The position numbers were made by a program, and so were the translations under genes. A stretch of 45,746 bases of DNA from Escherichia phage vB_EcoS_AKS96. Position 1 is the stretch's first letter. Each line of letters opens with the position of its first letter. Of the stretch, positions 1-28,453 are shown one piece after another. The notes beneath the pieces are model-generated. The model did no database searches, was not told the origin of the DNA, and saw only the letters and a program-made list of their open reading frames with translations. Location of the stretch: the sequence record NC_024789.1; one strand, given 5' to 3'.

Positions 1-516
1 ATGTCAGAAGAGAAAAAAATTCACCAGAAGATTGGTAACTTCAAGGAGCTTTACAATAAGAAGTATGGCGACATTGCCAATCTTAAGATTAACCACAGAT
101 ACACTCCCGAGCAGGTATTCGACATGGCTGTAAGGTATTTCAGCTGGGCTGAAGAGCAGGCAATTAAAGCTATCGAGACAGCAAGCTTTCAGGGTGTCGT
201 AACGGAAAACCTTGTTCACAAGCCGAGGGTATTTACGATAACTGGATTCCAACTTTTCTGCGGCGTTGGTCATAATGCCATCAGTAAATGGCGCTCTTCG
301 CCTGGATTTGATGAGGTGATGGAGTTTGTGGATTCGGTAATCTTTGAGCAGAAGTATCAGCTTGGCGTTAACAACATCGTCAACCCTGGACTGATTGGCA
401 AGGACTTAGGCATCGATAAGCCGCAAGAGGTTAACATCAATAACGCTTCAAATGCCGTAGTGAACGATGAAGAAGCTATGAAGGCTGCGCTTGAATCAAT
501 AGTTGATAAACTTTGA
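1..516 (+). CDS. putative terminase small subunit
   Basis: 171-aa ORF immediately upstream of TerL; position and size only, no diagnostic motif. Confidence 0.4.
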   Translation: MSEEKKIHQKIGNFKELYNKKYGDIANLKINHRYTPEQVFDMAVRYFSWAEEQAIKAIETASFQGVVTENLVHKPRVFTITGFQLFCGVGHNAISKWRSSPGFDEVMEFVDSVIFEQKYQLGVNNIVNPGLIGKDLGIDKPQEVNINNASNAVVNDEEAMKAALESIVDKL

Positions 517-561
517 TATGTTGATATAATTACCCCATTCAATAAACGAGTGGGGTTTTTT

Positions 562-1077
562 ATGTTAGATAGAGCGAAGCCTATGCCGCCTCTGGATTTT
601 CTTAGGGGAATTCTGAGTTACAATCCTGAAACGGGAAAGCTAACGTGGACATCAAAAGTAAGTAGCAAAACCATAATCGGATCCGAGGCTGGGACTTTGC
701 ACAAAGCTAGCGGTCGATATCAAGTACAGATACAAGGGAAGATATACAAGAGCTCAAGGATTGCATTTTATTTGTATTATGGCTTTGAGCCAGTTGGCGC
801 GGTTGACCACATAAATCGTGACCCATCAGACGATAGGATTTCTAATCTTAGGGATGCATCGCTTAACCAAAACGGAATGAATAAGTCTATGATGAGCAAT
901 AATACATCTGGCTACAAAGGTGTTAGCTACTCAAAGAGAAGGAATGAGTATATTGCATATGTGAAAATAAATGGAAAAATGATGTTTGGAGGTTGGTTTA
1001 AGAAAAAAGAAGAAGCAGCAAAGGTGGCGGCATCAATGAGGGAGAGTATACATGGGGAGTTCTGCAATCATGAGTGA
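562..1077 (+). CDS. HNH homing endonuclease with AP2-like C-terminal domain
   Basis: HNH signature VDHINRDPSDDRISNLRDASLNQN; C-terminal GYKGVSYSKRRNEYIAYVKINGK block; start moved from GTG 550 to ATG 562; 3' end overlaps TerL start. Confidence 0.7.
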   Translation: MLDRAKPMPPLDFLRGILSYNPETGKLTWTSKVSSKTIIGSEAGTLHKASGRYQVQIQGKIYKSSRIAFYLYYGFEPVGAVDHINRDPSDDRISNLRDASLNQNGMNKSMMSNNTSGYKGVSYSKRRNEYIAYVKINGKMMFGGWFKKKEEAAKVAASMRESIHGEFCNHE

Positions 1078-2641
1078 AATAATTGTATGGGAAGACTTAA
1101 CATACCCAGAAAAGCTAGCTATAAAGGCACTATCAACTCATAGCTTCGAGGGTTTCTTAAGGGTGTGGTTTCAAATAAGTCAATCTGAGCGTTATATTCC
1201 TAACTGGCACCATAAGTACCTCTGTAGAATCATCGATGAGGTTATTAGCGGTCAACGCAGAGATACAATCATTAACGTAGCTCCCGGGGCCGGAAAAACC
1301 GAGATTACATCCATTCACTTCCCAGTATACTCAATGCTTAAACTAAAGAAGGTTCGCAATCTTAGCCTGTCATTCTCAGATAGCCTCGTGAAGCGTAACT
1401 CTAAACGGGTTCGTGACCTTATCAAATCGACAGAATTCCAGGAGTTGTGGCCCTGCAAGTTTGGCACATGTAAGGATGATGAGATTCAGGTTCTTGATGA
1501 TTCTGGTAAGGTTAAGTTTGAATCAATATCAAAAGCAATTGGCGGTCAGATTACAGGCGCTCGCGGTGGATATATTACAGATAACTATAGCGGCTGTTTG
1601 ATGCTTGATGATGTAGACAAAGCGGATGATATGTTCAGCAAAGTCAGGCGAGAGGCCGTGCACACTCTTCTCAAAAACACCATTCGTTCACGTAGGGCTA
1701 GCAGCGTTAAAGGTAAAGCCACGCCAATTCTGTCAATTCAGCAAAGGCTTCATACTCAGGATTCAACGTGGTTCATGACTTCTGGTGGTATGGGTATCGA
1801 CTTTGATGTAGTGAAGATACCGGCGCTGGTCACTGAAGAATATGTGAATGAACTCCCTGACTGGATTCGTGAGCAGTTCGAGAAGGACGTGCTTTCATCC
1901 GAGTACGTCGAGCGAGATGGTGTTAAGTATTACAGCTACTTCCCGCAGAAGGAATCTGTGCATGACTTGATGGCAATGTGGGACTCAGATCCGTACACAT
2001 TCCTAAGCCAGTACCAACAATCTCCAGTAGCTCTGGGTGGAAACCTGATCAATGTAGATTGGTTTGTTCGCCTCGATGAGAATAACAGACCTCCAGCCAA
2101 GTATGACTACCGATTCATTACGGCTGATACTGCATTAACCACTAAGAGCTATAGTGACTATTCAGTGTTCATGTTATGGGGAGTAAGGGGCAGGAAGGCC
2201 TACGTGCTGGACATGGTTCGGGGTAAGTACGAGAGCCCGGAGCTAGAAAAGACACTTGTTGAATTTGAAGCTAAGCACCGAGCAAACAACAAGACTGACG
2301 GCATCCTTAGGAAGATTATCATAGAGAAAAAGGCTTCAGGTATAGGTTTAATCCAGTCAGCAAGTCGGACGATGAGGACACCTATTGAACCCTACATTCC
2401 TGATGTTGATAAGCTTACGAGGGTTATGAGTGCCCTGCCGCAGGTTAAAGCTGGTAACGTATTCTTACCACAAGAAGCACCATGGCTAAATTCTTTCTTG
2501 TCTGAATTTGCAGCTTTCACTGCTGATTCCACTCACAAACATGACGATATCGTGGACGCATTCACTATGGGTGTTAACCTTGAGCTCAACTTAGCGGATG
2601 ACCCGAGAGCCCGCTTAATGCGACTAGCTGGAGTTAAGTAA
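1052..2641 (+). CDS. terminase large subunit
   Basis: 529 aa; Walker A-like APGAGKTE near N-terminus; RBS agggagag before ATG; position before portal. Confidence 0.8.
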   Translation: MGSSAIMSEIIVWEDLTYPEKLAIKALSTHSFEGFLRVWFQISQSERYIPNWHHKYLCRIIDEVISGQRRDTIINVAPGAGKTEITSIHFPVYSMLKLKKVRNLSLSFSDSLVKRNSKRVRDLIKSTEFQELWPCKFGTCKDDEIQVLDDSGKVKFESISKAIGGQITGARGGYITDNYSGCLMLDDVDKADDMFSKVRREAVHTLLKNTIRSRRASSVKGKATPILSIQQRLHTQDSTWFMTSGGMGIDFDVVKIPALVTEEYVNELPDWIREQFEKDVLSSEYVERDGVKYYSYFPQKESVHDLMAMWDSDPYTFLSQYQQSPVALGGNLINVDWFVRLDENNRPPAKYDYRFITADTALTTKSYSDYSVFMLWGVRGRKAYVLDMVRGKYESPELEKTLVEFEAKHRANNKTDGILRKIIIEKKASGIGLIQSASRTMRTPIEPYIPDVDKLTRVMSALPQVKAGNVFLPQEAPWLNSFLSEFAAFTADSTHKHDDIVDAFTMGVNLELNLADDPRARLMRLAGVK

Positions 2642-2653
2642 TCATGATAAACT

Positions 2654-2676
2654 GCCCCTTACTCAGGGGCTTTTTT
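2654..2676 (+). terminator. rho-independent terminator
   Basis: hairpin gcccc-ttactca-ggggc followed by tttttt. Confidence 0.6.
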
Positions 2677-2690
2677 ATTGGAGAAATTAC

Positions 2691-3965
2691 ATGGTAAAAG
2701 CAGACAGCTACGCAAACATCTTTCTTAGCGGGAGTGATGGTAGTGAGGTTTACGGAAAGTTTGGCAGCCTTGGCCTAACAGCGCCAGCGCAGCTTGAGCA
2801 ACTTTACGTCAGCAGCGCTCTGGTTCGTCGAATTATTGATATCGTTCCAGAGGTCGCACTTGGCGCAGGCTTTAGCATTGAAGGTATCGACGACGAAGGT
2901 GCTTTCTGGTCGCGATGGGATGATTTAGGCCTTTCAGATAACGTAATCGACGCACTAGCCTGGGCGAGACTATACGGTGGCGCTGCTGTAGTGGCAATTG
3001 TGAAGGATGGAAGGGCGCTAACCAGCCCGGCTCGTGAAGGTGCGGAGCTTGAAACGGTTCGTGTGTACGACCGGCAGCAAATTAAGGTCCAGACTCGCGA
3101 GGAGAATCCACGTAACGCGCGTTTTGGTAAGCCATTAACTTACCGCATCACGCCAAACGGGTCGGCAACGTTCTACGATGTGCACTATACACGCTGTCAC
3201 ATCATTGATGGCGAGCGAGTACCTAACAACCTACGTCGTAATAACGATGGCTGGGGCGCAAGCGTACTAACTGGTGACTTAATTGACGCGATTGACGACT
3301 ATCAGAACTGTGAGCGACTGGCTACTCAGTTACTTCGTCGTAAACAGCAGGCGGTGTGGAAAGCAAAAGGCCTTGCTGACTTATGTGATGATTCAGATGG
3401 ATTTGGAGCAGCTCGTTTACGTCTGGCTCAGGTGGATAATAACAGTGGCGTTGGTCAGGCTATCGGGATTGACGCGGATAGTGAAGAGTACAACGTTCTC
3501 AACTCAGATATTGGCGGTATTGATACATTTCTGAGTCAGAAGTTCGATCGAATCGTTGCTCTGAGCGGTATTCATGAGATTATCCTTAAGGGTAAGAATG
3601 TTGGTGGTGTGTCAGCAAGCCAGAACACTGCTCTAGAGACTTTCTACGGTTATGTTGACCGTAAGCGCAAGGCTGAATTATTGCCTCTGCTTGAGTTCCT
3701 ACTGCCGTTCATCGTAACCGAGCAAGAGTGGTCAGTAGAATTTAACCCTCTATCGCAGGTTAGTGACAAGGATAAATCTGAGATTCTTGAGAAGAACGTC
3801 AATTCAGTTGCCGCATTGATTGCAGCTGGAATCATTGACGCAGACGAAGCAAGAGATACGTTGCGCGCAATTTCAACTGAGGTTAAGATTGGCGAAGGCT
3901 CAATTCAAACGGAGGTTGTAATTAATGAATCAGAAGACCCGCTGGATGTATCCGCAAATAATTGA
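2691..3965 (+). CDS. portal protein
   Basis: 424 aa directly after TerL; positional call. Confidence 0.6.
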   Translation: MVKADSYANIFLSGSDGSEVYGKFGSLGLTAPAQLEQLYVSSALVRRIIDIVPEVALGAGFSIEGIDDEGAFWSRWDDLGLSDNVIDALAWARLYGGAAVVAIVKDGRALTSPAREGAELETVRVYDRQQIKVQTREENPRNARFGKPLTYRITPNGSATFYDVHYTRCHIIDGERVPNNLRRNNDGWGASVLTGDLIDAIDDYQNCERLATQLLRRKQQAVWKAKGLADLCDDSDGFGAARLRLAQVDNNSGVGQAIGIDADSEEYNVLNSDIGGIDTFLSQKFDRIVALSGIHEIILKGKNVGGVSASQNTALETFYGYVDRKRKAELLPLLEFLLPFIVTEQEWSVEFNPLSQVSDKDKSEILEKNVNSVAALIAAGIIDADEARDTLRAISTEVKIGEGSIQTEVVINESEDPLDVSANN

Positions 3966-4689
3966 GAGCCAGATTAACCGCAGCCTTTTGGTTGCGGTAT
4001 CTGAACTTATTGAGCAAATGAAGTTATCTGCAAAGAGGCTAAAAATTGACACAGCGCAGGAGATTGAAGAGGAAGATTCAGACCTTTCAGATGTAATCTC
4101 AGCGCTGCTATCTGGTTTTGTTTCCACTCTGCCTGCGCTGGCACTAGCAATATATCGTTATAACTCGGCGCAATTCCTTAAGGTGGCCAACAACTCCGGA
4201 GGTAAGAATAATCCTGTAGTTCTTGCGCTAGGATTGTATGGTATTAACGCGGATGAACCATGGTGGCTCGACACCAGGAACTCCTGGATTGTTGGCACGC
4301 AGTTAAGTGCATCAAAGCTGCTAAACAACATCAAGGATGATTTCATAAACAACGCCATTACTGCGCAGGCTGGTAACACTGTTGACCTTGATGATAGATA
4401 CCGAATCTACAGAAAGAGAACAGCAAATATCGCTGCTGGAATTACAGGGTCTCTAAACTCAAACCTTATGCGGAGAAGGCTTGAAGATGCCGGTGTATCT
4501 CAGTATGTTTGGCGTGGTAGACTTGACGACAAAGAGCGACCATCTCACGTTTTGCGTGAGGGGGTTAGCTTTAAATCAGATGGTTCGGACGCTGGAAAAC
4601 TTGACGGCCTTGCGATATTCCCCGGTCAGCAATACGGGTGTCGTTGCTGGGCTGTTCCTAAATGGGAGAATTTAATTAATGAAGAGTAA
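3925..4689 (+). CDS. head morphogenesis / minor head protein
   Basis: 254 aa between portal and scaffold; positional call. Confidence 0.45.
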   Translation: MNQKTRWMYPQIIESQINRSLLVAVSELIEQMKLSAKRLKIDTAQEIEEEDSDLSDVISALLSGFVSTLPALALAIYRYNSAQFLKVANNSGGKNNPVVLALGLYGINADEPWWLDTRNSWIVGTQLSASKLLNNIKDDFINNAITAQAGNTVDLDDRYRIYRKRTANIAAGITGSLNSNLMRRRLEDAGVSQYVWRGRLDDKERPSHVLREGVSFKSDGSDAGKLDGLAIFPGQQYGCRCWAVPKWENLINEE

Positions 4690-5800
4690 AATGCGTTATG
4701 ATAGCGCCAAGGTAAAAGCCCGTTTCGATGAGAACGGTTTTCTCGTGGACACCCCAGTGGTTGCTCGCGTAGGTGTACAAACCTACTATATGCCAGATGG
4801 TTCAGAGCGCCGAGAGTTCCGTCCGGCTTCAGAGGTTTTTAAAGCCGATTCGCTGCAGAGTTATCAGGGTAAGCCGCTAACTCTTGGCCACGTGGTTGTC
4901 AACTCTGAAAATGCTAAAGAGGTGGTTGTTGGTTCTGTGTCTGGCTCAGCTACGCGTCAGGACTCTGCAGTGATTGTTCCTCTTACCGTTTACGACAAGG
5001 AAGCAATTGAGAAGGCCAAGTCTGGCGTTGCTGGTGAGCTCTCTGTTGGCTACAACACTGTTGACATTGAGTCTCCTGGTTGGGGTAGTAATGAAACGGG
5101 TGAGTACAAGCTTGATGGAGAGTACGCAAGCCAGGATGAGATTCCTGCTGATTGGGTACGCTTTGATGCGCTACAGACGAATATCGTTGTTAATCATATC
5201 GCACTCGTATATAAAGGTCGCGCAGGTATTGCTAAACTCAATCTGGACGCGGAACAGGAAAACCCGTATACTGATACCGTTCAATCAAATAAAGAGGATA
5301 AATTGATGATTAAGATTAAACTCGATGGCGAACAGGAGTTCGAAATCGCCCCGGAAGTTGCTAACCACATCGAAGCTGTTAAGGCAGATGCGGAGCAGGC
5401 TAAAGCCAAAGCTGACACTCTGGAAGCTGAGCGCGATGCACTGAAAGCTAAAGTTGATGGCATTCCTGCCGAAATCGAAGCTGCCGTAGCCAAAGCTAAA
5501 GCTGACGCTGATGAGCTGGCAACTCTGGTTGCAGTTGCCGCAGAAGCTGGCGTTAAATGTGACGGCCTGGATGCTAAAGCAATCAAAGTTGCTTACGTTA
5601 AAGAAGTATCTGGCCTGGATGTTTCTGAGAAATCTGACGCGTATATTGACGCAGCGTTCGACATTGCCAAAGAATCTGATAAAATGGCTGAAGTTCGTAA
5701 GGCTACCGTAGCCTCTGATAAATCTGACAGCAAAGAAGAGTTGACGCTTATTGATCCGCGCGCTCGAATTGCTAAAGCTAAATCCAATAAGGAGAAATAA
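4679..5800 (+). CDS. capsid scaffolding protein (possibly protease-scaffold fusion)
   Basis: 373 aa; C-terminal Ala/Lys/Glu-rich coiled-coil-like region (AEQAKAKADTLEAERDALKAKVDG). Confidence 0.5.
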   Translation: MKSKMRYDSAKVKARFDENGFLVDTPVVARVGVQTYYMPDGSERREFRPASEVFKADSLQSYQGKPLTLGHVVVNSENAKEVVVGSVSGSATRQDSAVIVPLTVYDKEAIEKAKSGVAGELSVGYNTVDIESPGWGSNETGEYKLDGEYASQDEIPADWVRFDALQTNIVVNHIALVYKGRAGIAKLNLDAEQENPYTDTVQSNKEDKLMIKIKLDGEQEFEIAPEVANHIEAVKADAEQAKAKADTLEAERDALKAKVDGIPAEIEAAVAKAKADADELATLVAVAAEAGVKCDGLDAKAIKVAYVKEVSGLDVSEKSDAYIDAAFDIAKESDKMAEVRKATVASDKSDSKEELTLIDPRARIAKAKSNKEK

Positions 5801-5802
5801 TA

Positions 5803-6297
5803 ATGGCATTTCGTCAAGCAGCATTAGCGGGTATGGTATCTGATACCTCTCTTTACAATATCGATGGCGCGTGCGTTCTAGGTGGCACCGCTCAGGTGCA
5901 GGTTGGTCAGGCAGTTGGTGTTAGCGAAGTTGAAGTTACTGGAACTAGCTCATCTGGTGCAGGTCATAAAACTGTAGTTGGTTCTGGCATTACGACCGCT
6001 AACGTTTATGGTGTTGCTGTTCGCTCGCATTATGAAGCTGTTGATGGCTTCTATCGACCGCAAGAGGCAATTAACGTAATGACGGCTGGTAGAATCTGGA
6101 TGAAAACCACACTGTCAGCAGCACCTGCATTCGGAACTGCAATCACTCTTGATGCGAATGGAATTGTTGTTTCTAGCGGCGCTGTTGAGCCAGCTGGTTG
6201 GACTTTCGCAGGTGGCTTCATTGCTGGCACTGCGGTGCAGGGTCAGCCAGAACCTTATGATGGCGCACTGATTGAAGTTCAGGTTAAGCAGAAATAA
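5803..6297 (+). CDS. head decoration-like / capsid accessory protein
   Basis: 164-aa Gly/Ala/Val-rich ORF between scaffold and capsid genes, followed by terminator. Confidence 0.35.
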   Translation: MAFRQAALAGMVSDTSLYNIDGACVLGGTAQVQVGQAVGVSEVEVTGTSSSGAGHKTVVGSGITTANVYGVAVRSHYEAVDGFYRPQEAINVMTAGRIWMKTTLSAAPAFGTAITLDANGIVVSSGAVEPAGWTFAGGFIAGTAVQGQPEPYDGALIEVQVKQK

Positions 6298-6314
6298 TTA
6301 ACCGTGTAAATATA

Positions 6315-6336
6315 ACCCGCTTCGGCGGGTTTTTTA
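6315..6336 (+). terminator. rho-independent terminator
   Basis: acccgc-ttcg-gcgggt hairpin plus T-tract. Confidence 0.6.
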
Positions 6337-6391
6337 TTGCCAAAATTCTGTTACAATCATTAAGACTATTAACCGATATGGAGTAAATGAA

Positions 6392-7276
6392 ATGGCTTTA
6401 GAGTTTATGGAAGTTGTAGCTAAGACTTACGGCGACCTGGAGAGGTTAGTAAAGGCAAAAATGCTGGAAGGATGGATGCCATTTGATAGCTTAATTAACA
6501 ATAGATTTACTATCGCAATTGTTATGGTTAAGGGTAGTGATGCGCAGCTTACCGACTTTAGGATTCTCGGTGATAGCACTAGAGTTAAATTAATAAGCAA
6601 GGCTAACAAATTAATTGCTGATGACCCTGAGTGGGAGGTTTTCGGTCACCCTCAAATATTTGGCGCTGACGATTACATAGTTTCATTATCAAAAGGCTTT
6701 AAGGGAACTACTGGTAGGGATGGCATGGCTGGCCCACAAGGACCGCAAGGACCGCGCGGCGAAGTTGGCCCACAAGGTCCGCAGGGTGAAAAAGGAGATA
6801 CTGGACCTCAGGGACTAAAAGGTGATAAAGGTGATAAGGGTGATCCAGGAGCGCTCGTAACATGGAAAAAATTTAACCTAGTTAACACAGTTGGTTCAGG
6901 GGTGGACACTCAATTCCCTGGTATAGCTAACACTTGGTTTAGGGTGCAAGTAACATCATCATCAAGATTTACATTCTTTGCTCTAAAGGAAGGGTCTGGA
7001 ACAACAAGCATTGATGGCGACGTTAAGTACAACGATGAGGATGATACTTATCGCAGGGTTAAGTATTCTGGAGTGTTCACATCGGCATCGAACTACACAT
7101 TTATTAACACAGGATTCGGCGTGACCTCAGCTAGATGTGTAGAGTTTTACACCTATCTAAATGATGGCTCTAGTGGTTATTTTTACAGGGTTGAGGTTTT
7201 CATTGCTGGCAGGCCTGCATTTACCACAATTACACAACCAGACTTCACCGTTAGAATAACAAGACTTGATGCCTAA
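6392..7276 (+). CDS. collagen-like repeat protein
   Basis: 294 aa; 16 uninterrupted G-X-Y triplets ([49 protein letters not shown]) between N- and C-terminal globular regions. Confidence 0.65.
6704..6850 (+). repeat. collagen G-X-Y triplet repeat region inside CDS 6392-7276
   Basis: GGN-NNN-NNN periodicity, Pro/Gln rich. Confidence 0.8.
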
Positions 7277-7292
7277 ACTTTATCACCCGCCA

Positions 7293-7320
7293 TTGCGCGG
7301 TCTTAAAACTCGTGTATAAT
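7293..7320 (+). promoter_or_regulatory. candidate sigma70-type promoter upstream of major capsid gene
   Basis: TTGCGC, 16-bp spacer, TATAAT. Confidence 0.4.
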
Positions 7321-7356: not shown

Positions 7357-8301
7357 ATGACTATTAAGCTAGATGCTTTCGAGCAGAACAAAATCACCGA
7401 ACACCTGCGTAACATGGGTGTTGAAAAAGCTGATGCAGCTGGCATTTGGACCATCAAACAGCTGACTCAGACGCTTAACCGTAACTACGATCGCGAATAT
7501 GCTGAAACGTCTGTAGTTAACCTGTTCCCGGTCACTAACGAAATTGGCGCTTACGCTAAATACTTCGAATACGGCGAAATGGATGGTGTTGGCTTAGCTC
7601 AGATTGTAGCTGATTATTCAGATGATTTGCCGACGGTTGATGCACTGATGCAAGAGAAGCAAGGTAAGGTGTTCCGTTTTGGTAATGCATTCCTGGTTTC
7701 CATCGATGAGATTGCGGCTGGCGCAGCTACTGGTCAATCACTATCTTCTCGCAAACAGGCTCTTGCATTCGAAGCTCATGACAACCTGCTTGATAAGCTG
7801 GTTTGGAAAGGCTCCGCACCTCACGGCATTAAGTCTGTATTCGATTACGACAACGTAAACCAGGTAGTTCCAAGCGGCGCATGGACTACAGCACAGACTG
7901 CTTACGCTGACGTTAATAGCCTGCTGGATATTATCGAAACAGCAACCCAAGGTATCCATCGAGCTAACAGGCTGCTTCTTCCGGCATCCGCTCGTCGAGT
8001 AATGCAAACTCTGGTCCCGAATACTGGTATTAGCTACTTTGAGTTCTTTGCCCGTAACAACAATGGCGTACAGGTGGAGTTCCTGCAACTCCTTGACAAC
8101 TACGATGGCGCAAACGGCAAGGCTGCAATTGCTTATGAGTACGACCCATTGAACATGAGCATTGAGATTCCAGAAGCTACTCACGTCCTTCCAGCTCAAC
8201 CGAAGGATTTGCACTTCAAGTTTCCTGTAACCTCCAAGTCTACTGGCCTGGTTATCTACCGACCTCTGACCGTTGCAGTAATGAAAGGTATCACCTTCTA
8301 A
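7357..8301 (+). CDS. major capsid protein
   Basis: 314 aa, own promoter and strong terminator, position in head module. Confidence 0.7.
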   Translation: MTIKLDAFEQNKITEHLRNMGVEKADAAGIWTIKQLTQTLNRNYDREYAETSVVNLFPVTNEIGAYAKYFEYGEMDGVGLAQIVADYSDDLPTVDALMQEKQGKVFRFGNAFLVSIDEIAAGAATGQSLSSRKQALAFEAHDNLLDKLVWKGSAPHGIKSVFDYDNVNQVVPSGAWTTAQTAYADVNSLLDIIETATQGIHRANRLLLPASARRVMQTLVPNTGISYFEFFARNNNGVQVEFLQLLDNYDGANGKAAIAYEYDPLNMSIEIPEATHVLPAQPKDLHFKFPVTSKSTGLVIYRPLTVAVMKGITF

Positions 8302-17251: not shown

Positions 17252-20200
17252 ATGGCACAAATGGTTAAACAAACAACGAGGTTATATGATATGGCCGATT
17301 TGCCAAAGATTTATGGAAGCAAGGGTGGTAGCAAGAAGCCGCACACGCCTGTAGAGCAAGAAGATAACCTGATTTCACTAAACAAGATTAAGGTGCTACT
17401 GGCTGTAGCTGATGGAGAGGTTGATTCTAGTTTCTCGCTCAAGGATGTTTACCTTGCTGACGTTCCGGTGCAAAACCAGGATAACTCATTCAACTATGAA
17501 GGTGTTACGGCAGAGTTTAGGTCTGGTACTCAGTCGCAGGATTACATCGCAGGACTAGATGGCGCAGCTTCAGAGATTCAGGTTAGTCGTGAAATCAATA
17601 ATGACACACCTTATATCATCGCAGTCAACAACAGTCAGCTATCAGCAATTCGAGTCAAGCTGTTCTGGCCTCGACTCGTTAAGCAAGAAGAGAATGGAGA
17701 TTTAAATGGCACAACATGTGAATATGCAATCGATTTATCAGTTAATGGCTCAGCGTACACTGAGTATACCAGAGGCGTGGCTAACGGTAAAACTACAACA
17801 GGTTACGACCGCAGTATCAGGGTTAACTTACCAGCCGAGTTTAGCAGCGCTCTTGTTCGTATTAGGAAGTTAACGCCAGACTCAACAAGTAGCACCCTGG
17901 TTAACGGGATGCAGATCACAACCTATCAGGAAGTAATCGATGCTAAATTCCGCTACCCTCTTACGGCACTTGTTTACGTGGAGTTCAGTTCTGACCTGTT
18001 CCCTAACGGGATCCCAACGATAGCCATTAAGAAAAAGTGGAAGCTTATCCGTGTGCCGACAAACTACAATCCAGAGACAAGAACTTATAGCGGAGCATGG
18101 AATGGAACCTTTAAAATGGCATGGTCTGACAACCCGGCCTGGGTTTTATATGACCTGGTGGTTAGCCAGCGTTACGGTTTAGATCAGCGAGAACTTGGTG
18201 TTGAGATTGATAAATGGGGTCTGTATGAAGCAGCGCAATTCTGCGACCAGATGGTTCCTGATGGTAAGGGTGGAATGGAGCCGCGATATACTTGTAACGT
18301 TGTCATTCAGCAGAAAGTGGAAGCGTATCAGCTTATTCGTGACATCTGTTCTATCTTCCGCGGTTTAACCTTCTATGATGGTGAGCAAATCGGGATTGTT
18401 GTAGACAGGCCGCGCCAGCCAAGCTATGTGTTCACTAATGATAACGTTGTTGATGGATTGTTTAACAGGACATTCTCTAGCGACAAGAGCCTTTACACGA
18501 CAGCCAACGTTCAGTTTGATGACGAGCAGAACAACTACCAGCAGGACGTAGAGCCAGTATTCGACTTAGAAGCAACACGCCGATTTGGTTACAACCCTGT
18601 AGACTTGACTGCAATTGGCTGCGTAAGGCGAAGCGAGGCTAACCGCCGTGGTCGTTGGTTGCTGAAAACAAACCTTCGCAGTGAAACGGTAACGTTCACA
18701 ACTGGCCTCGAAGGCATGATTCCTATGATTGGTGATGTAATTGCTGTTAATGACCAGGCATGGTCAAGCAACTACACATTAAACCTTTCTGGTCGAATTG
18801 TTGAAGCTACAGGTTTGCAGGTCTTCGTACCATTCGCTATTGATGCTGACCCTGGTGACAGGATTTTAATCAATAAGCCAGATGGAAGCCCAGAGTACAG
18901 GACTATCGCTTCAGTATCTGCAGATAAGTTGACACTTGAACTGAATACAGCATTCAGCTTCACGCCGCAGCCAGATACAGTATTTGCAATCGATAAGCAG
19001 AATCTGGCATTACAGCAGTATGTGGTGACCGGGATTCAAAAAGCTAACACTGACGGCGAGGACTCCTTCCAGTACAGCATCACGGCAGTTCAGTATGATC
19101 CGAACAAGTACGATGAGATTGACTACGGCGTAAACATCGATGACAGGCCAACAAGTATCGTTGACCCTGACAGGATTTTGCCACCTGAAAATATAACCGT
19201 TACTAGCTACAGCAAGGTAGTTCAGGGCTTAAGCGTTGAGACGATGGTTATTGGTTACGAAAAGGTGCAGTATGCGAAAACATACAACGTACAATGGCGT
19301 AAGAACAATGGTAACTGGATTAACGTACCAGAGACGGCTAACACCGAGGTTGATATTGAAGGAATTTACGCTGGCATCTACGACGTAAGGGTTCGTGCCG
19401 TAACTGACCAGAAATCAGTATCTACCTGGTCTGATATAACGACAGTTAGCCTGACCGGCAAGATTGGTGAACCATCTGCGCCGCCTGTAATTACCGCATC
19501 TGATGATGAGGTTTTCGGGATTAGAGTTAAGTGGGGTTTTCCTAATGATTCAGCCGATACTGCGTACACCGAGCTTCAGCAGGTTCCTGATAATGGTGAC
19601 GGTACATACAATCCAGAAAACGCATCATTGCTTACACTGGTTCCGTATCCTCAATACGAATACTGGCACACAACCTTGCCAGCAGGCAACGTAAGGTGGT
19701 ACAGGGCTAGGATTATTGACAGGATAGGTAACGTATCTCCGTGGACTGATTTTGTCAGAGGTATGGCTTCTGATGACGTGAGTGCAATCATTGGTGATAT
19801 CAAGGTTGATATAGAAAACTCCGATGGGTACAGGTATCTTCTCCAGAACGCCATTGATGCAAACACTGACATCCAGAACCAGGCCGAAGCAATAATCGAG
19901 AACGCTCTGGCAAACGACACTGACGTACGCGTGATGAAGCGCGAGAATGGAGCCAGGAAAGCTGAATATCGCCAGGCAGTAAGTTTGATTGCTGATGAAA
20001 CTCAAGCGCGTGTAGATGCTCTCACAGAGCTTAAAGCGCAGATTGATGATGAAATCGTGGGCCAGATTACAACTATCGAAACAGCTTTAGCTACTGAAAC
20101 TGAAGCAAGGGCTAGTGCTGACACTCAATTGAGTTCAAGGCTTGGAGAGAATGAATCAGCCTTGAATCAGAAACTTGACTCTTACGCTACGGTCGAAGGG

Positions 20201-20677
20201 GTCGGTGTTCAGTACGGCGTAAAGCTAGGCATTAAGTACAATGGGGTTGAGTATGGCGCTGGTATGAGCATGGAGTTAACAGGTAGCGGCGGTAATGTTC
20301 GCAGTCAGTTCATTTTCGATGCTAACAGGTTCGCAATCAGCAACGGTATTAGTTCTGGATCCGGTCAGTGGTCACTGCCTTTCGTTGTGGATAATAACCA
20401 GGTGTTCATTCAGAGCGCGGTGATTCAGGATGGTTCAATTACTAACGCGAAGATTGGTAACAGGATTCAATCAAACAACTATGTTGCTGGTAGTGCTGGT
20501 TGGGCTATTGATAAGTCAGGGAGCGCAGAACTAAACAACGCGACAGTAAGGGGAAGCTTGTACGCAAGTAACGGTAACTTCGCCTTTAACGGAACCAACA
20601 ATACTGTCGTAATAAACAATAACGGCATAACTGTTAATTTACCAAATGGAGGTAGGGTAGTGGTTGGAGTATGGTAA
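17252..20677 (+). CDS. central tail fibre / host specificity protein (lambda J-like)
   Basis: 1141 aa at end of tail module. Confidence 0.8.
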   Translation: MAQMVKQTTRLYDMADLPKIYGSKGGSKKPHTPVEQEDNLISLNKIKVLLAVADGEVDSSFSLKDVYLADVPVQNQDNSFNYEGVTAEFRSGTQSQDYIAGLDGAASEIQVSREINNDTPYIIAVNNSQLSAIRVKLFWPRLVKQEENGDLNGTTCEYAIDLSVNGSAYTEYTRGVANGKTTTGYDRSIRVNLPAEFSSALVRIRKLTPDSTSSTLVNGMQITTYQEVIDAKFRYPLTALVYVEFSSDLFPNGIPTIAIKKKWKLIRVPTNYNPETRTYSGAWNGTFKMAWSDNPAWVLYDLVVSQRYGLDQRELGVEIDKWGLYEAAQFCDQMVPDGKGGMEPRYTCNVVIQQKVEAYQLIRDICSIFRGLTFYDGEQIGIVVDRPRQPSYVFTNDNVVDGLFNRTFSSDKSLYTTANVQFDDEQNNYQQDVEPVFDLEATRRFGYNPVDLTAIGCVRRSEANRRGRWLLKTNLRSETVTFTTGLEGMIPMIGDVIAVNDQAWSSNYTLNLSGRIVEATGLQVFVPFAIDADPGDRILINKPDGSPEYRTIASVSADKLTLELNTAFSFTPQPDTVFAIDKQNLALQQYVVTGIQKANTDGEDSFQYSITAVQYDPNKYDEIDYGVNIDDRPTSIVDPDRILPPENITVTSYSKVVQGLSVETMVIGYEKVQYAKTYNVQWRKNNGNWINVPETANTEVDIEGIYAGIYDVRVRAVTDQKSVSTWSDITTVSLTGKIGEPSAPPVITASDDEVFGIRVKWGFPNDSADTAYTELQQVPDNGDGTYNPENASLLTLVPYPQYEYWHTTLPAGNVRWYRARIIDRIGNVSPWTDFVRGMASDDVSAIIGDIKVDIENSDGYRYLLQNAIDANTDIQNQAEAIIENALANDTDVRVMKRENGARKAEYRQAVSLIADETQARVDALTELKAQIDDEIVGQITTIETALATETEARASADTQLSSRLGENESALNQKLDSYATVEGVGVQYGVKLGIKYNGVEYGAGMSMELTGSGGNVRSQFIFDANRFAISNGISSGSGQWSLPFVVDNNQVFIQSAVIQDGSITNAKIGNRIQSNNYVAGSAGWAIDKSGSAELNNATVRGSLYASNGNFAFNGTNNTVVINNNGITVNLPNGGRVVVGVW

Positions 20678-25716: not shown

Positions 25717-25737
25717 AGCCCCTTTCGGGGCTTTTTT
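25717..25737. terminator. bidirectional terminator
   Basis: agcccc-tttc-ggggct with flanking A/T runs. Confidence 0.6.
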
Positions 25738-28453
25738 ATTGTGACGTTACATCACCATTCAAACTCAAAAATACTGATTGTTTTGTCAAATCAACACCAC
25801 CTTTAAGCGAATAGTATCTTGAAGCGCAATAATCAGACTCATCTGAATAGCTGCCAACGTAAACACCAAAGCCATATCCAGAGCAAGCTACATCACCAGC
25901 GCCTTGACCTGAATACATGGTTACATAGTTACCGGCTGTTGTTAGTATAGGTCTGACATCAATATCTATATACTGAGAATCAAATGACCTTCTAACTCTA
26001 AATCCAGTATTCAGGTTTAAGATGCTCCACCAAACCTTACCAGATACATCAAAACCAAGAGCAATATTGTAAGTACCACCGTTGACCATTCTTGATGAGA
26101 CTGGCAACACACCTGATAAAACTCTTGTTTCACCTGATGCTGATATTAACAATGAGACACTGTGTTCTCCTGATGCCATCACGTTATACTGCAAGTAAAG
26201 AGCATTACTATCAACTCCAAAACCAGTCCCTATAGCTATAAGGTTAAAGTCTTCAGCAACAGTTATGGTCGGCGATATATTGCATGTAGCGGTGAAACCT
26301 AGTGACGGGTCAAATCCAGTGCATATAATCTTATCTTTATTTGCCTGTGAAAGCCTTAGCCAATATTGCTGCCCAACTGATGATGCCGCTGCGGCGAATA
26401 CTGGTGTATTAGAGACCCCATCAAAAGCTGAAGTGTCGTTTGCTGGCTTAATTCTTGTCTTCCTTTTATCTATCAGTCCGTTTATCTTCAGGTTTCCTGA
26501 ATACTCAGCAACATAGTTAGTGTCCCCTGAGAAATTTGGGCCAAAGTAACCAGATTCAACAACCCCATCGATCACAACATCAGATCTTGAGTCAAGGAAT
26601 CTGAAGTTGCCAGCGGAAGTTGGCCTTCCATCGCCATTGTTAGATACATAGTTAAGCCCAACAAAACCATAGATTCTTACAGAGCTATTTGAAAACGAAA
26701 CGTTATAATCTCTGTAGTTTGAGTTTATGCTGTTCCTGTTACTATTTAATCCATTAAATACCACATTTCTAGAGTTTACAATTCTAACACCGTCACCACC
26801 GCAATCCTGCGCCTCTATAGCTGACATGGTGATGTTTTGGCAGTTATCAATCAGGATGCCATAAGCATCATCAAGCTCATTATAAGCCGACCAACCCGAC
26901 CAAATAAACTTACCGCCAACAATCCTACAGTTTCCGGCATTCCTAAGTATTAGACAATTTCTTCCACAGGTGTTTACCTGTATGTTATTCCATGTGAAGT
27001 CTGTTGTTTCGTTAATCAATCCGTCTTTTTTTATGTGCTGAATAAGAACATCATCAAGAACAGGAGAGTAGTTACCAGCAGCAACGAAAATTCCGTAAAC
27101 ATCAAACCCAGCAATGTGAGTGTTTCTTATCGTTAAGTCCCTTCTAGGGTCAGCACCAGCGTTGAATGGGTAATTGGTTGATAACCCAGTCGGCGTAGGG
27201 ATGTAAATCCCAGCAGTACCATCAGTAAACGCCGTGTCTTGCTGGGCTCCAGTGCCGTAAAGAGCAATGCCTTCAATATGAATGAGCGAGCAAGAATCAG
27301 ATACATCAATTAAAGAGCCAATTGATGAACTAAGCTGAGTTATTCTTGATTTGTGCTTGCCAAAACCAATTATAGAGCAAGATTTATTTCTCATTACCAG
27401 GTTTGATGCCATGTAGTCGCTATCAAGCTTTAATGCCAGCCCAGAGTCTAGGATTTGCTGTATCTGTGTCGTTGAGTCTGATGTCGATGACTTAATAGCT
27501 CCAAGTTCGCAAGGCGACAGCTCCCCGCCACAGATTCTTTCCCAGTAATAACCGGTACTTGATTCAAAAACCAATCCTGAAGATAATCCATATGATAACG
27601 ATGACTCCGGCTTACAAACAAAGAACCCACCACCATAACCAAGACCACCAATGTAAGAATCACAATAGACAACCTCTAAGTCATAAATTCTGGCAGAGTT
27701 TGTCATTGCTGATACTGATTCAAACCTTCTTGTGTAATCCTGTTGAATCCAAAAACCAACTCCAATACCACCTGTAGACTGTGGTGATGAGTTTTGTGGT
27801 ATGGATTTTGGAACGCTACCAGACCAGTAATAAACCGAAACATGATTGTCATTAAAGTAAATTGCAGGCTGAGTTCTTGAGTTTATTTCTCCACCATTTG
27901 AGAAATCAACTACAAGAGCAGATGACACAGAAGCCGCAGCAGAGCTTGCTATTGTAGCTGAAGAGGAAGCCGAGTTAGCGCTACTTTCAGCTAACTGCCT
28001 ATCAGAAGATACCTGATCTTTGTCAGAAGAAACTTGAGCAGCATCAACAGCAACTTGCTGAGATTGCATGTTGACATTATTTACGCTTTGCTGGAAAGAA
28101 TCAGAATCAAATTGATTAAAAGCATCAACTGCCGCTGCAACCTCTGTTTCACGGGACTGATAATAACGAAGTGTCTCAGCAACGTCCTGAGCAAGACCTT
28201 GGACAGTAATTCCGTCATGAGCAAGGATTGAGTACTGAGTCCCAGCTGGCGCAGTAAAACCTTTATCATTGAATACACGAATCTCTGTATCGCTTAAAAT
28301 CTCAGCGATAGTAACAATGCTTGTCGGGGTGGTGTTAAAAATCATTGTTGCGCCAACTCGGATTAGTGTTAGTGGTTGCCTCCACGTGGTGCCAACACCA
28401 GTTACAGTTCCGTCAGCTGCAAGCGATGCAGTTCCAGCGTCATAAATTGCCAT
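25736..28453 (-). CDS. tailspike / lateral tail fibre with beta-helix-like region
   Basis: 905 aa; Asn/Gly/Ser-rich repetitive central region; minus strand inside replication block. Confidence 0.55.
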   Translation of the reverse strand: MAIYDAGTASLAADGTVTGVGTTWRQPLTLIRVGATMIFNTTPTSIVTIAEILSDTEIRVFNDKGFTAPAGTQYSILAHDGITVQGLAQDVAETLRYYQSRETEVAAAVDAFNQFDSDSFQQSVNNVNMQSQQVAVDAAQVSSDKDQVSSDRQLAESSANSASSSATIASSAAASVSSALVVDFSNGGEINSRTQPAIYFNDNHVSVYYWSGSVPKSIPQNSSPQSTGGIGVGFWIQQDYTRRFESVSAMTNSARIYDLEVVYCDSYIGGLGYGGGFFVCKPESSLSYGLSSGLVFESSTGYYWERICGGELSPCELGAIKSSTSDSTTQIQQILDSGLALKLDSDYMASNLVMRNKSCSIIGFGKHKSRITQLSSSIGSLIDVSDSCSLIHIEGIALYGTGAQQDTAFTDGTAGIYIPTPTGLSTNYPFNAGADPRRDLTIRNTHIAGFDVYGIFVAAGNYSPVLDDVLIQHIKKDGLINETTDFTWNNIQVNTCGRNCLILRNAGNCRIVGGKFIWSGWSAYNELDDAYGILIDNCQNITMSAIEAQDCGGDGVRIVNSRNVVFNGLNSNRNSINSNYRDYNVSFSNSSVRIYGFVGLNYVSNNGDGRPTSAGNFRFLDSRSDVVIDGVVESGYFGPNFSGDTNYVAEYSGNLKINGLIDKRKTRIKPANDTSAFDGVSNTPVFAAAASSVGQQYWLRLSQANKDKIICTGFDPSLGFTATCNISPTITVAEDFNLIAIGTGFGVDSNALYLQYNVMASGEHSVSLLISASGETRVLSGVLPVSSRMVNGGTYNIALGFDVSGKVWWSILNLNTGFRVRRSFDSQYIDIDVRPILTTAGNYVTMYSGQGAGDVACSGYGFGVYVGSYSDESDYCASRYYSLKGGVDLTKQSVFLSLNGDVTSQ

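Follow-up and report, generated by a model that had tools for sequence, protein, structure and literature searches.

The 45,746-nucleotide (nt) genome of Escherichia phage vB_EcoS_AKS96 (sequence record NC_024789.1; this whole stretch is called the window here) carries a gene for a collagen-like fibre protein of 294 amino acids (aa) inside its head module, between the genes for a cement-type protein and the major capsid protein. Our analysis favours, with modest confidence, a reading of the product as a modular, non-essential adhesin that would be anchored to the capsid and built on a collagen stalk. The fibre is probably trimeric; its place on the head, its docking site, its ligand and the incorporation of this short 294-aa form into virions are what we infer. 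A first-pass annotation of the same DNA had noted the open reading frame (ORF) on the plus strand between a decoration-like and the major capsid gene, which we confirmed, with a length of 294 aa and Pfam matches on both neighbours. It had also proposed a capsid-displayed fibre; this stands as the best-supported function, given a virion protein of phage Rogue1 and the precedent of SPP1 gp12, with the head rather than the neck or tail as its site being the more tentative half of the claim.

Virion mass spectrometry (MS) had been suggested as a check, and published data show that a homologue is present in purified particles. CsCl-purified virions of Rogue1 gave about six bands, and the three identified by MS were the product of gene 21 (gp21), the major capsid protein and the major tail protein (Kropinski et al. 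2012, PMC3496638). The 52.7-kDa band was gp21, with 59.5% coverage and with peptides from the N-terminal domain (including the N-terminal residues 2 to 19), from both collagen segments and from the C-terminal domain (PMC3496638 supplement). The sequence given there is identical to the translation of the homologue at the same locus, and the spread of peptides implies that this family member is present in virions full length and unprocessed. Rogue1 gp21 is a prominent virion protein, and so strong a band would be easier to reconcile with about 180 copies than with a small number of tail fibres.

Furthermore, the position of the gene is constant. All 12 fibre-bearing T1-like loci inspected (window, AHP24, AHS24, UDF157lw, Rogue1, JK06, phiKP26, e4/1c, AugustePiccard, RobRod40, Sd1 and phiEB49) have it directly upstream of the capsid gene, after the cement gene and any accessory genes, and the same cement-fibre-capsid order was found in a metagenomic contig. 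Rtp has no fibre gene, and its cement and capsid genes are immediate neighbours. Comparing relatives for presence or absence at this locus, as had been advised, thus bore out the idea of an accessory insertion. The Rtp capsid protein is 93 to 94% identical to the capsid proteins of the fibre-bearing phages AugustePiccard and RobRod40. Because Rtp lacks the gene despite this identity, because the AHS24 gene is apparently frameshifted, and because the N-domain is confined to a small share of the phages with this capsid family, sequence comparison suggests that the fibre gene is dispensable.

Modules of the fibre protein and variation in the family

The protein is composed of three modules, an N-terminal domain (N-domain), a collagen-like stalk and a C-terminal domain (C-domain), whose limits are given in Table 1. 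In the stalk, glycine occupies every third residue through 18 unbroken G-X-Y triplets; the run itself had been recognised in the first-pass annotation, whose count of 16 perfect triplets has to be raised, the number depending on whether GFK, GTT and GAL are counted. This is the sole run of at least six G-X-Y triplets in all six frames of the window, and it matches the Pfam family Collagen (PF01391) with 38 bits against a cut-off of 27.2, its repeats being uninterrupted as in members of that family. The stalk is rich in charge (KGD and KGE triplets) and contains seven prolines. A collagen triple helix rises by 0.286 nm per residue, and at this textbook value the stalk would be about 15 nm long if triple-helical.

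Confident, compact AlphaFold2 (AF2) models were obtained for both globular domains. The underlying alignments were shallow (six to seven sequences) because homologue searches returned few proteins. The C-domain model is a sandwich resembling immunoglobulin (Ig) domains and carbohydrate-binding modules (CBM); a jelly-roll trimerisation head of the C1q/TNF/BclA type was not recognised when the C-domain was tested for it. This fold and the CBM-like insert found in longer family members suggest carbohydrate binding. The N-domain resembles DUF1737 (PF08410) without being a member: matches stayed below the gathering threshold (22.2 bits for the Rogue1 N-domain against a cut-off of 24), a metagenomic homologue gave a faint match, and half-domain matches in BFVD had E values above 1. 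The lone profile match in the PDB, to the anti-Thoeris sponge Lockin (9p8l, E = 0.59), was taken as chance after fold comparison.

Searches with tblastn and HMMER located the N-domain in about 27 distinct T1-like phages, compared with 831 phage records for the capsid-protein family, and a full HMMER scan of 1.84 billion representative proteins yielded only 8 clusters; word-indexed homologue searches gave 1, 2 and 8 proteins. As an accessory gene, the fibre gene has a narrow distribution. The usual architecture consists of the N-domain, a first collagen run, an insert of about 48 aa with a sub-threshold CBM5/12 match, a second collagen run and a C-domain of about 130 to 156 aa, and such long forms (477 to 514 aa) predominate in the family. 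Short forms with a single collagen run are those of the window (18 triplets), BECP10 (14) and JK06 (10). AHP24 gp08 is 100% identical to the window protein, and the AHP42 protein is 99.7% identical in a single uninterrupted alignment. The BECP10 protein lacks 12 aa relative to the window through an in-frame deletion, which fits the 36-nt spacing of direct DNA repeats in the window stalk (6730 to 6750 and 6766 to 6786).

The JK06 protein corresponds to the Rogue1 protein without its internal block. The Rogue1 authors noticed GPVGP repeats, not collagen, and considered an intein (PMC3496638). We rejected this idea, since the extra block consists of collagen plus the insert of about 48 aa and is explained by recombination between G-X-Y repeats. 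In UDF157lw, an N-domain with 99% identity to that of the window and identical first triplets lead into a long form with another C-domain, and in phiEB49 gp53 (locus excerpt 2492 to 3181) the stalk joined to the N-domain is Gly/Ala-rich and not collagen. All members have only the N-domain in common; collagen stalks range from 10 to 76 triplets, and the C-domains, alike in length, fall into at least four highly divergent types. The pattern is that of a conserved putative anchor with an exchangeable stalk and tip.

The same gene has accumulated conflicting labels, namely "collagen-like protein," "tail fiber protein," "hypothetical" and, wrongly, "DNA polymerase." In AHS24 (NC_024784), one additional G in a G-run of the collagen region (window 6837 to 6840) splits the gene into two annotated ORFs; either the phage is viable with a genuine frameshift, or the homopolymer was misread in sequencing. 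The two ORFs are labelled "DNA polymerase" and "hypothetical" and persist as PHROG 22681 and PHROG 31616. The polymerase label was discarded: it stems from this split and from a "DNA polymerase I" misannotation in JK06, which the Rogue1 authors pointed out (PMC3496638). Also, the tail-fibre label of PHROG 5073 does not agree with a gene that lies between the cement and capsid genes and not in a tail module. Both labels, which have spread via RefSeq and the PHROGs, are corrected here.

Position on the particle

If the fibre sits on the head, the next question is which protein it would bind. Between Sd1 and Rogue1, the N-domains are 97% and the capsid proteins 98% identical, the cement proteins 79%, and the C-domains are unrelated. 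Between e4/1c and RobRod40, the cement proteins (97%) and C-domains (96%) are close, the capsid proteins are 84% identical and the N-domains 41%. N-domain groups hence track capsid-protein groups and not the modules adjoining the N-domain. This co-variation favours docking on the capsid protein over docking on the cement protein, albeit weakly.

The protein could instead be a virion component of the neck or tail, that is, a whisker, collar, side fibre or auxiliary O157 receptor-binding protein whose gene is parked in the head block; we consider this rather unlikely. The collagen-like phage proteins that the stalk matches mostly carry a tail-fibre annotation, and trimeric fibres suit necks and tails, whose symmetry is 3-fold or 6-fold. 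The gene, however, is never found in the tail module, the J-like and 904-aa tail-fibre genes of the window lying 10 to 19 kb from it, and its position directly 5' of the capsid gene is invariant in three subfamily-level groups. Related modules in T4-like and Jersey-like phages are likewise encoded beside hoc or the capsid gene. The Rogue1 MS data give presence in the virion and not a position; still, the homologue was one of only three bands analysed, which argues for a high copy number.

A role in receptor binding would agree with the swapping of C-domains between phages, as is usual for receptor-binding modules, and with the weak CBM5/12-like insert of the long forms. Against it, the type of C-domain is independent of host serotype: the O157-specific phages AHP24, UDF157lw and Rogue1 have three different C-domains, and AugustePiccard, isolated on K-12, shares its C-domain with e4/1c at 96% identity. 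The authors of the BECP10 study ascribe recognition of the O157 O-antigen to the tail spike. This mismatch between C-domain and host, together with the BECP10 tail spike, makes an auxiliary adhesin of the Hoc or gp12 kind more plausible than a primary receptor-binding protein.

Several points weigh against a capsid-anchored adhesin and keep our confidence modest. No experiment places any family member on the head, and our search of the literature found no cryo-electron microscopy or functional study of the fibre or of a Drexlerviridae head decoration. Relatives are labelled "tail fiber protein" in PHROG and RefSeq, though these labels have no experimental basis. The co-variation of N-domain and capsid protein comes from few linked genes. 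Having a single collagen run and lacking the CBM5/12-like insert, the window protein may have arisen by deletion, with some loss of function. Finally, seven excised bands were identified for the AHP24 group and gp08 was not among them (Niu et al. 2014). Since the cement protein gp07 was also not among these bands, this survey was incomplete and is uninformative rather than negative.

The cement-capsid junction and expression of the gene

The first-pass annotation had described the gene as a self-contained unit bounded by a terminator and a promoter-like element. Both signals are real features of the sequence. The intrinsic terminator was picked up by our scan, folds stably (-13.2 kcal/mol, z = -3.1) and is annotated in the AHP24 and AHS24 records. 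The element TTGCGC-16-TATAAT can be read downstream of the fibre gene, though its -35 hexamer matches only three of six consensus positions; it is unlisted by the promoter scan for this reason, as the scan demands four of six. It is annotated as a weak promoter in the AHS24 record, and every relative compared, Rtp included, keeps a TTG-N19-TATAAT arrangement 5' of its capsid gene. The hairpin type and T-run of the terminator also occur in all these relatives, again with the fibre-less Rtp.

The description as a self-contained unit did not hold, however. In Rtp, the 113-nt spacer between the cement and capsid genes consists of a terminator of the same type, followed immediately by attgcgtgggctaaaaactcgtgtataatg, whereas in e4/1c, AugustePiccard, RobRod40 and the window, the fibre gene and a leader of about 50 nt lie exactly between the terminator and the promoter-like element. 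Because the two signals are contiguous in a phage lacking the fibre, they are best seen as ancestral signals of the cement/capsid junction, and they were evidently not brought in with the fibre gene. The gene has no sigma-70-like promoter of its own: none was found between 6297 and 6392 in a scan requiring at least four of six matches in the -35 hexamer. No stable fold was predicted for the leader (z = 0.18). The fibre gene is probably expressed by read-through of the terminator, and its dose would then be below that of the cement protein.

These findings bear on two further explanations. One holds that the gene is a moron, or encodes a non-structural protein (e.g., one working inside the host cell or set free from it), acquired as an independent transcription unit. 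Its presence as an accessory gene in a minority of T1-like phages, the signals on either side and the weak N-domain match to Lockin (E = 0.59) could be read in this way. We rejected the moron, and regard the whole explanation as very improbable: the gene has no promoter of its own, the flanking signals are contiguous in Rtp, and its G+C content is ordinary (43.3%, compared with 43.9% for the window). The moron-like acquisition proposed in the first-pass annotation falls for the same reason of composition, and because the gene is dependent on read-through and belongs to a family with a member in virions.

The other explanation takes the 294-aa form as a decaying, functionless remnant of a long fibre gene, made at a low level or left out of the particle. 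The forms of the window, BECP10 and JK06 look like products of collagen-repeat recombination in a family in which long forms predominate, yet the reading frame and the two globular domains are preserved in the window, AHP24 (100%) and AHP42 (99.7%), the change in BECP10 is in-frame, and both domains gave confident, compact AF2 models. The AHS24 frameshift would fit decay, unless the extra G is a sequencing error. The absence of gp08 from the seven AHP24 bands and the promoterless position behind a terminator also speak for a remnant; the same terminator, however, precedes the Rogue1 gene, whose protein is abundant. Overall, we judge decay to be improbable.

For a capsid-anchored adhesin, we propose the following sequence of events. 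The fibre gene would be transcribed by read-through of the leaky terminator behind the cement gene, giving a stoichiometry below that of the capsid protein. Three chains would zip into a triple helix of about 15 nm over the 18 triplets, and the conserved alpha/beta N-domain would attach the trimer to the mature head, with the capsid protein (e.g., at hexon centres, as for SPP1 gp12) a likelier partner than the cement protein. The exchangeable beta-sandwich of the C-domain would thereby be held off the shell, where it could make weak, reversible contacts with surface glycans of the cell envelope or of mucus-type polymers. Such contacts would raise the encounter rate, as has been proposed for Hoc, pb10 and gp12.

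Two minor features of the junction were observed. The leader motifs CTGTTA...ATTAACC...GGAG recur among phages whose N-domains are just 25 to 40% identical. A small hairpin (7285 to 7303; -7.9 kcal/mol, z = -2.7) shares sequence with the -35 region of the promoter-like element, and phages of the e4/1c type have a longer stem that takes in the 3' end of their fibre gene (GCCCAC...GTGGGC); the hairpin may be a transcript-end or regulatory structure.

Known systems, module exchange and genome setting

Collagen-like capsid accessories whose genes adjoin the capsid gene have a precedent, and the rarity implied by the first-pass annotation is not supported. SPP1 gp12 is a non-essential, collagen-like trimer present in 180 copies (60 trimers) on hexon centres, and its gene lies immediately 5' of the capsid gene (gene 11, scaffold; gene 12; gene 13, capsid). 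Both proteins have a G-X-Y stalk, and both genes abut the capsid gene in a module of portal, MuF-like, scaffold or protease, and capsid genes. In contrast, gp12 has 64 aa, 8 triplets and short helical ends, whereas the window protein has 294 aa and two globular domains; capsid binding was demonstrated for gp12 and is deduced for the window protein. Outside the G-X-Y repeat, no homology between the two was found, BLASTP aligning triplets only (aa 115 to 154 with 15 to 38).

T4 Hoc, T5 pb10 and phi29 gp8.5 are, according to a review, dispensable accessories believed to hold a binding module out from the shell, as we propose for the fibre. The C-domain of the fibre is modelled as an Ig/CBM-like sandwich, and a homologue of the distal modules is encoded beside hoc in Dhakavirus. 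Hoc and pb10, however, are monomers made of Ig domains in series, and gp8.5 forms a helical coiled fibre. All three lack a collagen stalk and this N-domain, and no sequence or fold match of the window protein to any of them was found. By analogy, the fibre would work like SPP1 gp12, Hoc or the phi29 head fibres, yet it stands outside those families.

Its closest counterparts are Rogue1 gp21, JK06 JK_26, the BECP10 "collagen-like protein" and the "collagen repeat protein" bas01_0010 of the BASEL collection, which have the same N-domain, locus and architecture, although most of them are long forms with two collagen runs and the CBM5/12-like insert or have other C-domains. Collagen-like tail fibres and O157 prophage proteins (PMC3368898 class) resemble the window protein in their bacterial-type, hydroxyproline-free, charge-rich G-X-Y stalk with non-collagen flanks. 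They differ in that their genes are in tail modules, whereas the window gene is in the head module, and homology is confined to the repeat.

Parts of the fibre occur in other phage groups. A collagen protein of the T4-like Dhakavirus (VR5 gp229, excerpt 3392 to 4693; ESCO10_00117, 3302 to 4666) consists of collagen, a CBM-like insert, collagen and a beta-sandwich; its C-domain is collinear with that of the window at about 26% identity, and its 33-aa N terminus is unrelated. The gene adjoins hoc or Hoc-like genes on one side and gp24 vertex genes on the other. Furthermore, the distal half of the phiEB49 gp53 stalk is about 49% identical to gp24 of the Jerseyvirus "dunkel" (excerpt 3426 to 3797), the product of a small gene between the capsid and hoc-like genes that is annotated as a putative head fibre.

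A doubtful but consequential conjecture is that the N-domain serves as a transferable module for docking on the capsid lattice of T1-like phages, which would use it to display swappable glycan-binding or glycan-modifying heads on collagen "springs." Unrelated families (Drexlerviridae and the T4-like Dhakavirus) would exchange the distal cassette of collagen, CBM-like insert, second collagen run and beta-sandwich, each with an anchor of its own. The capsid, and not the tail, would then bear a rapidly evolving first-contact layer of adhesins, with effects on the site of persistence (gut mucus, O-antigen-bearing cells) or on the effective host range.

Even the simpler capsid reading has consequences. 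If the fibre is located on the head, it would be a second, structurally distinct collagen-based capsid decoration after SPP1 gp12, in T1-like coliphages that include the O157 biocontrol candidates AHP24, BECP10 and Rogue1, and the N-domain would be a ready-made capsid tag for phage display. If on the neck or tail instead, it would be another collagen-like fibre with an unusual gene position. A defined anchor with swappable distal domains bears on the adherence of phages to surfaces or mucus and on the transfer of accessory adhesins between phage families; the anchor-stalk-tip design and the exchange with T4-like phages merit structural study.

About 4 kb around the fibre gene are 99.8% identical to the Escherichia coli O157:H7 phages AHP24, AHS24 and AHP42 and 99.7% identical to BECP10; by sequence, the window is assigned to Rogunavirus, T1-like Drexlerviridae. 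The cement gene product also matches the XM1_gp53 minor capsid family (E = 4e-12) and is homologous to Rtp rtp26, and the major capsid protein was detected by MS in virions of the AHP24 group (Niu et al. 2014).

Table 1. Features of the window around the collagen-like fibre gene
Feature	Position (nt)	Strand	Details
Small terminase gene	1-516		
HNH endonuclease ORF	550-1077		PHROG 99
Large terminase gene	1052-2641		
Portal gene	2691-3965		
MuF-like protein gene	3925-4689		
Prohead protease gene	4679-5800		
Cement/decoration-type capsid protein gene	5803-6297	+	164 aa; Phage_cement PF22758, E = 3.5e-21
Intrinsic terminator after cement gene	6314-6338	+	stem 6314-6331, 7 bp, GC-rich; UUCG loop; T-run
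Fibre-gene leader	6339-6391	+	Shine-Dalgarno GGAG 6380-6383, 8 nt before ATG
Collagen-like fibre gene	6392-7276	+	294 aa
N-terminal domain	6392-6694	+	aa 1-101; alpha/beta, two beta-alpha-beta-beta units
Collagen-like stalk	6695-6856	+	aa 102-155; 18 G-X-Y triplets
C-terminal domain and stop codon	6857-7276	+	aa 156-294 (~139 aa); all-beta sandwich
Promoter-like element 5' of capsid gene	7293-7320	+	TTGCGC 7293-7298, TATAAT 7315-7320, 16-nt spacer
Major capsid protein gene	7357-8301	+	314 aa; Pfam PF09950, E = 3.5e-40; PHROG 264
J-like tail fibre gene	17252-20677		
904-aa tail fibre gene	25736-28453		

The HNH ORF lies between the small and large terminase genes, its 3' end overlapping the start of the latter (1052), and may be a homing endonuclease insertion.

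In the slot between the cement and capsid genes, AugustePiccard (bas01_0009, excerpt 298 to 1587) and Sd1 (gp46, excerpt 1115 to 2407) also carry genes for SGNH/GDSL esterases of about 430 aa, annotated under the names "head outer capsid" or "head decoration." The N-domain of the fibre is absent from these esterases. This suggests that the slot is a hot spot for glycan-directed capsid accessories.

A search for remote N-domain relatives with a five-sequence query returned, besides e4/1c, only single-unit proteins in other contexts, which are uninformative on attachment. Their single beta-alpha-beta-beta units resemble the first half of the N-domain (PHROG 2036, DUF1737-like). Some are encoded between lysis and terminase genes; in IMG/VR contigs of 67 and 108 kb (locus excerpts 5022 to 6935), such a unit heads an esterase-like protein of 637 aa (PHROG 143). 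Single-unit proteins of 148 aa (IMG/VR excerpt 4989 to 5435) matched two PHROGs weakly, the "head fiber protein" PHROG 5711 and the "virion structural protein" PHROG 1954.

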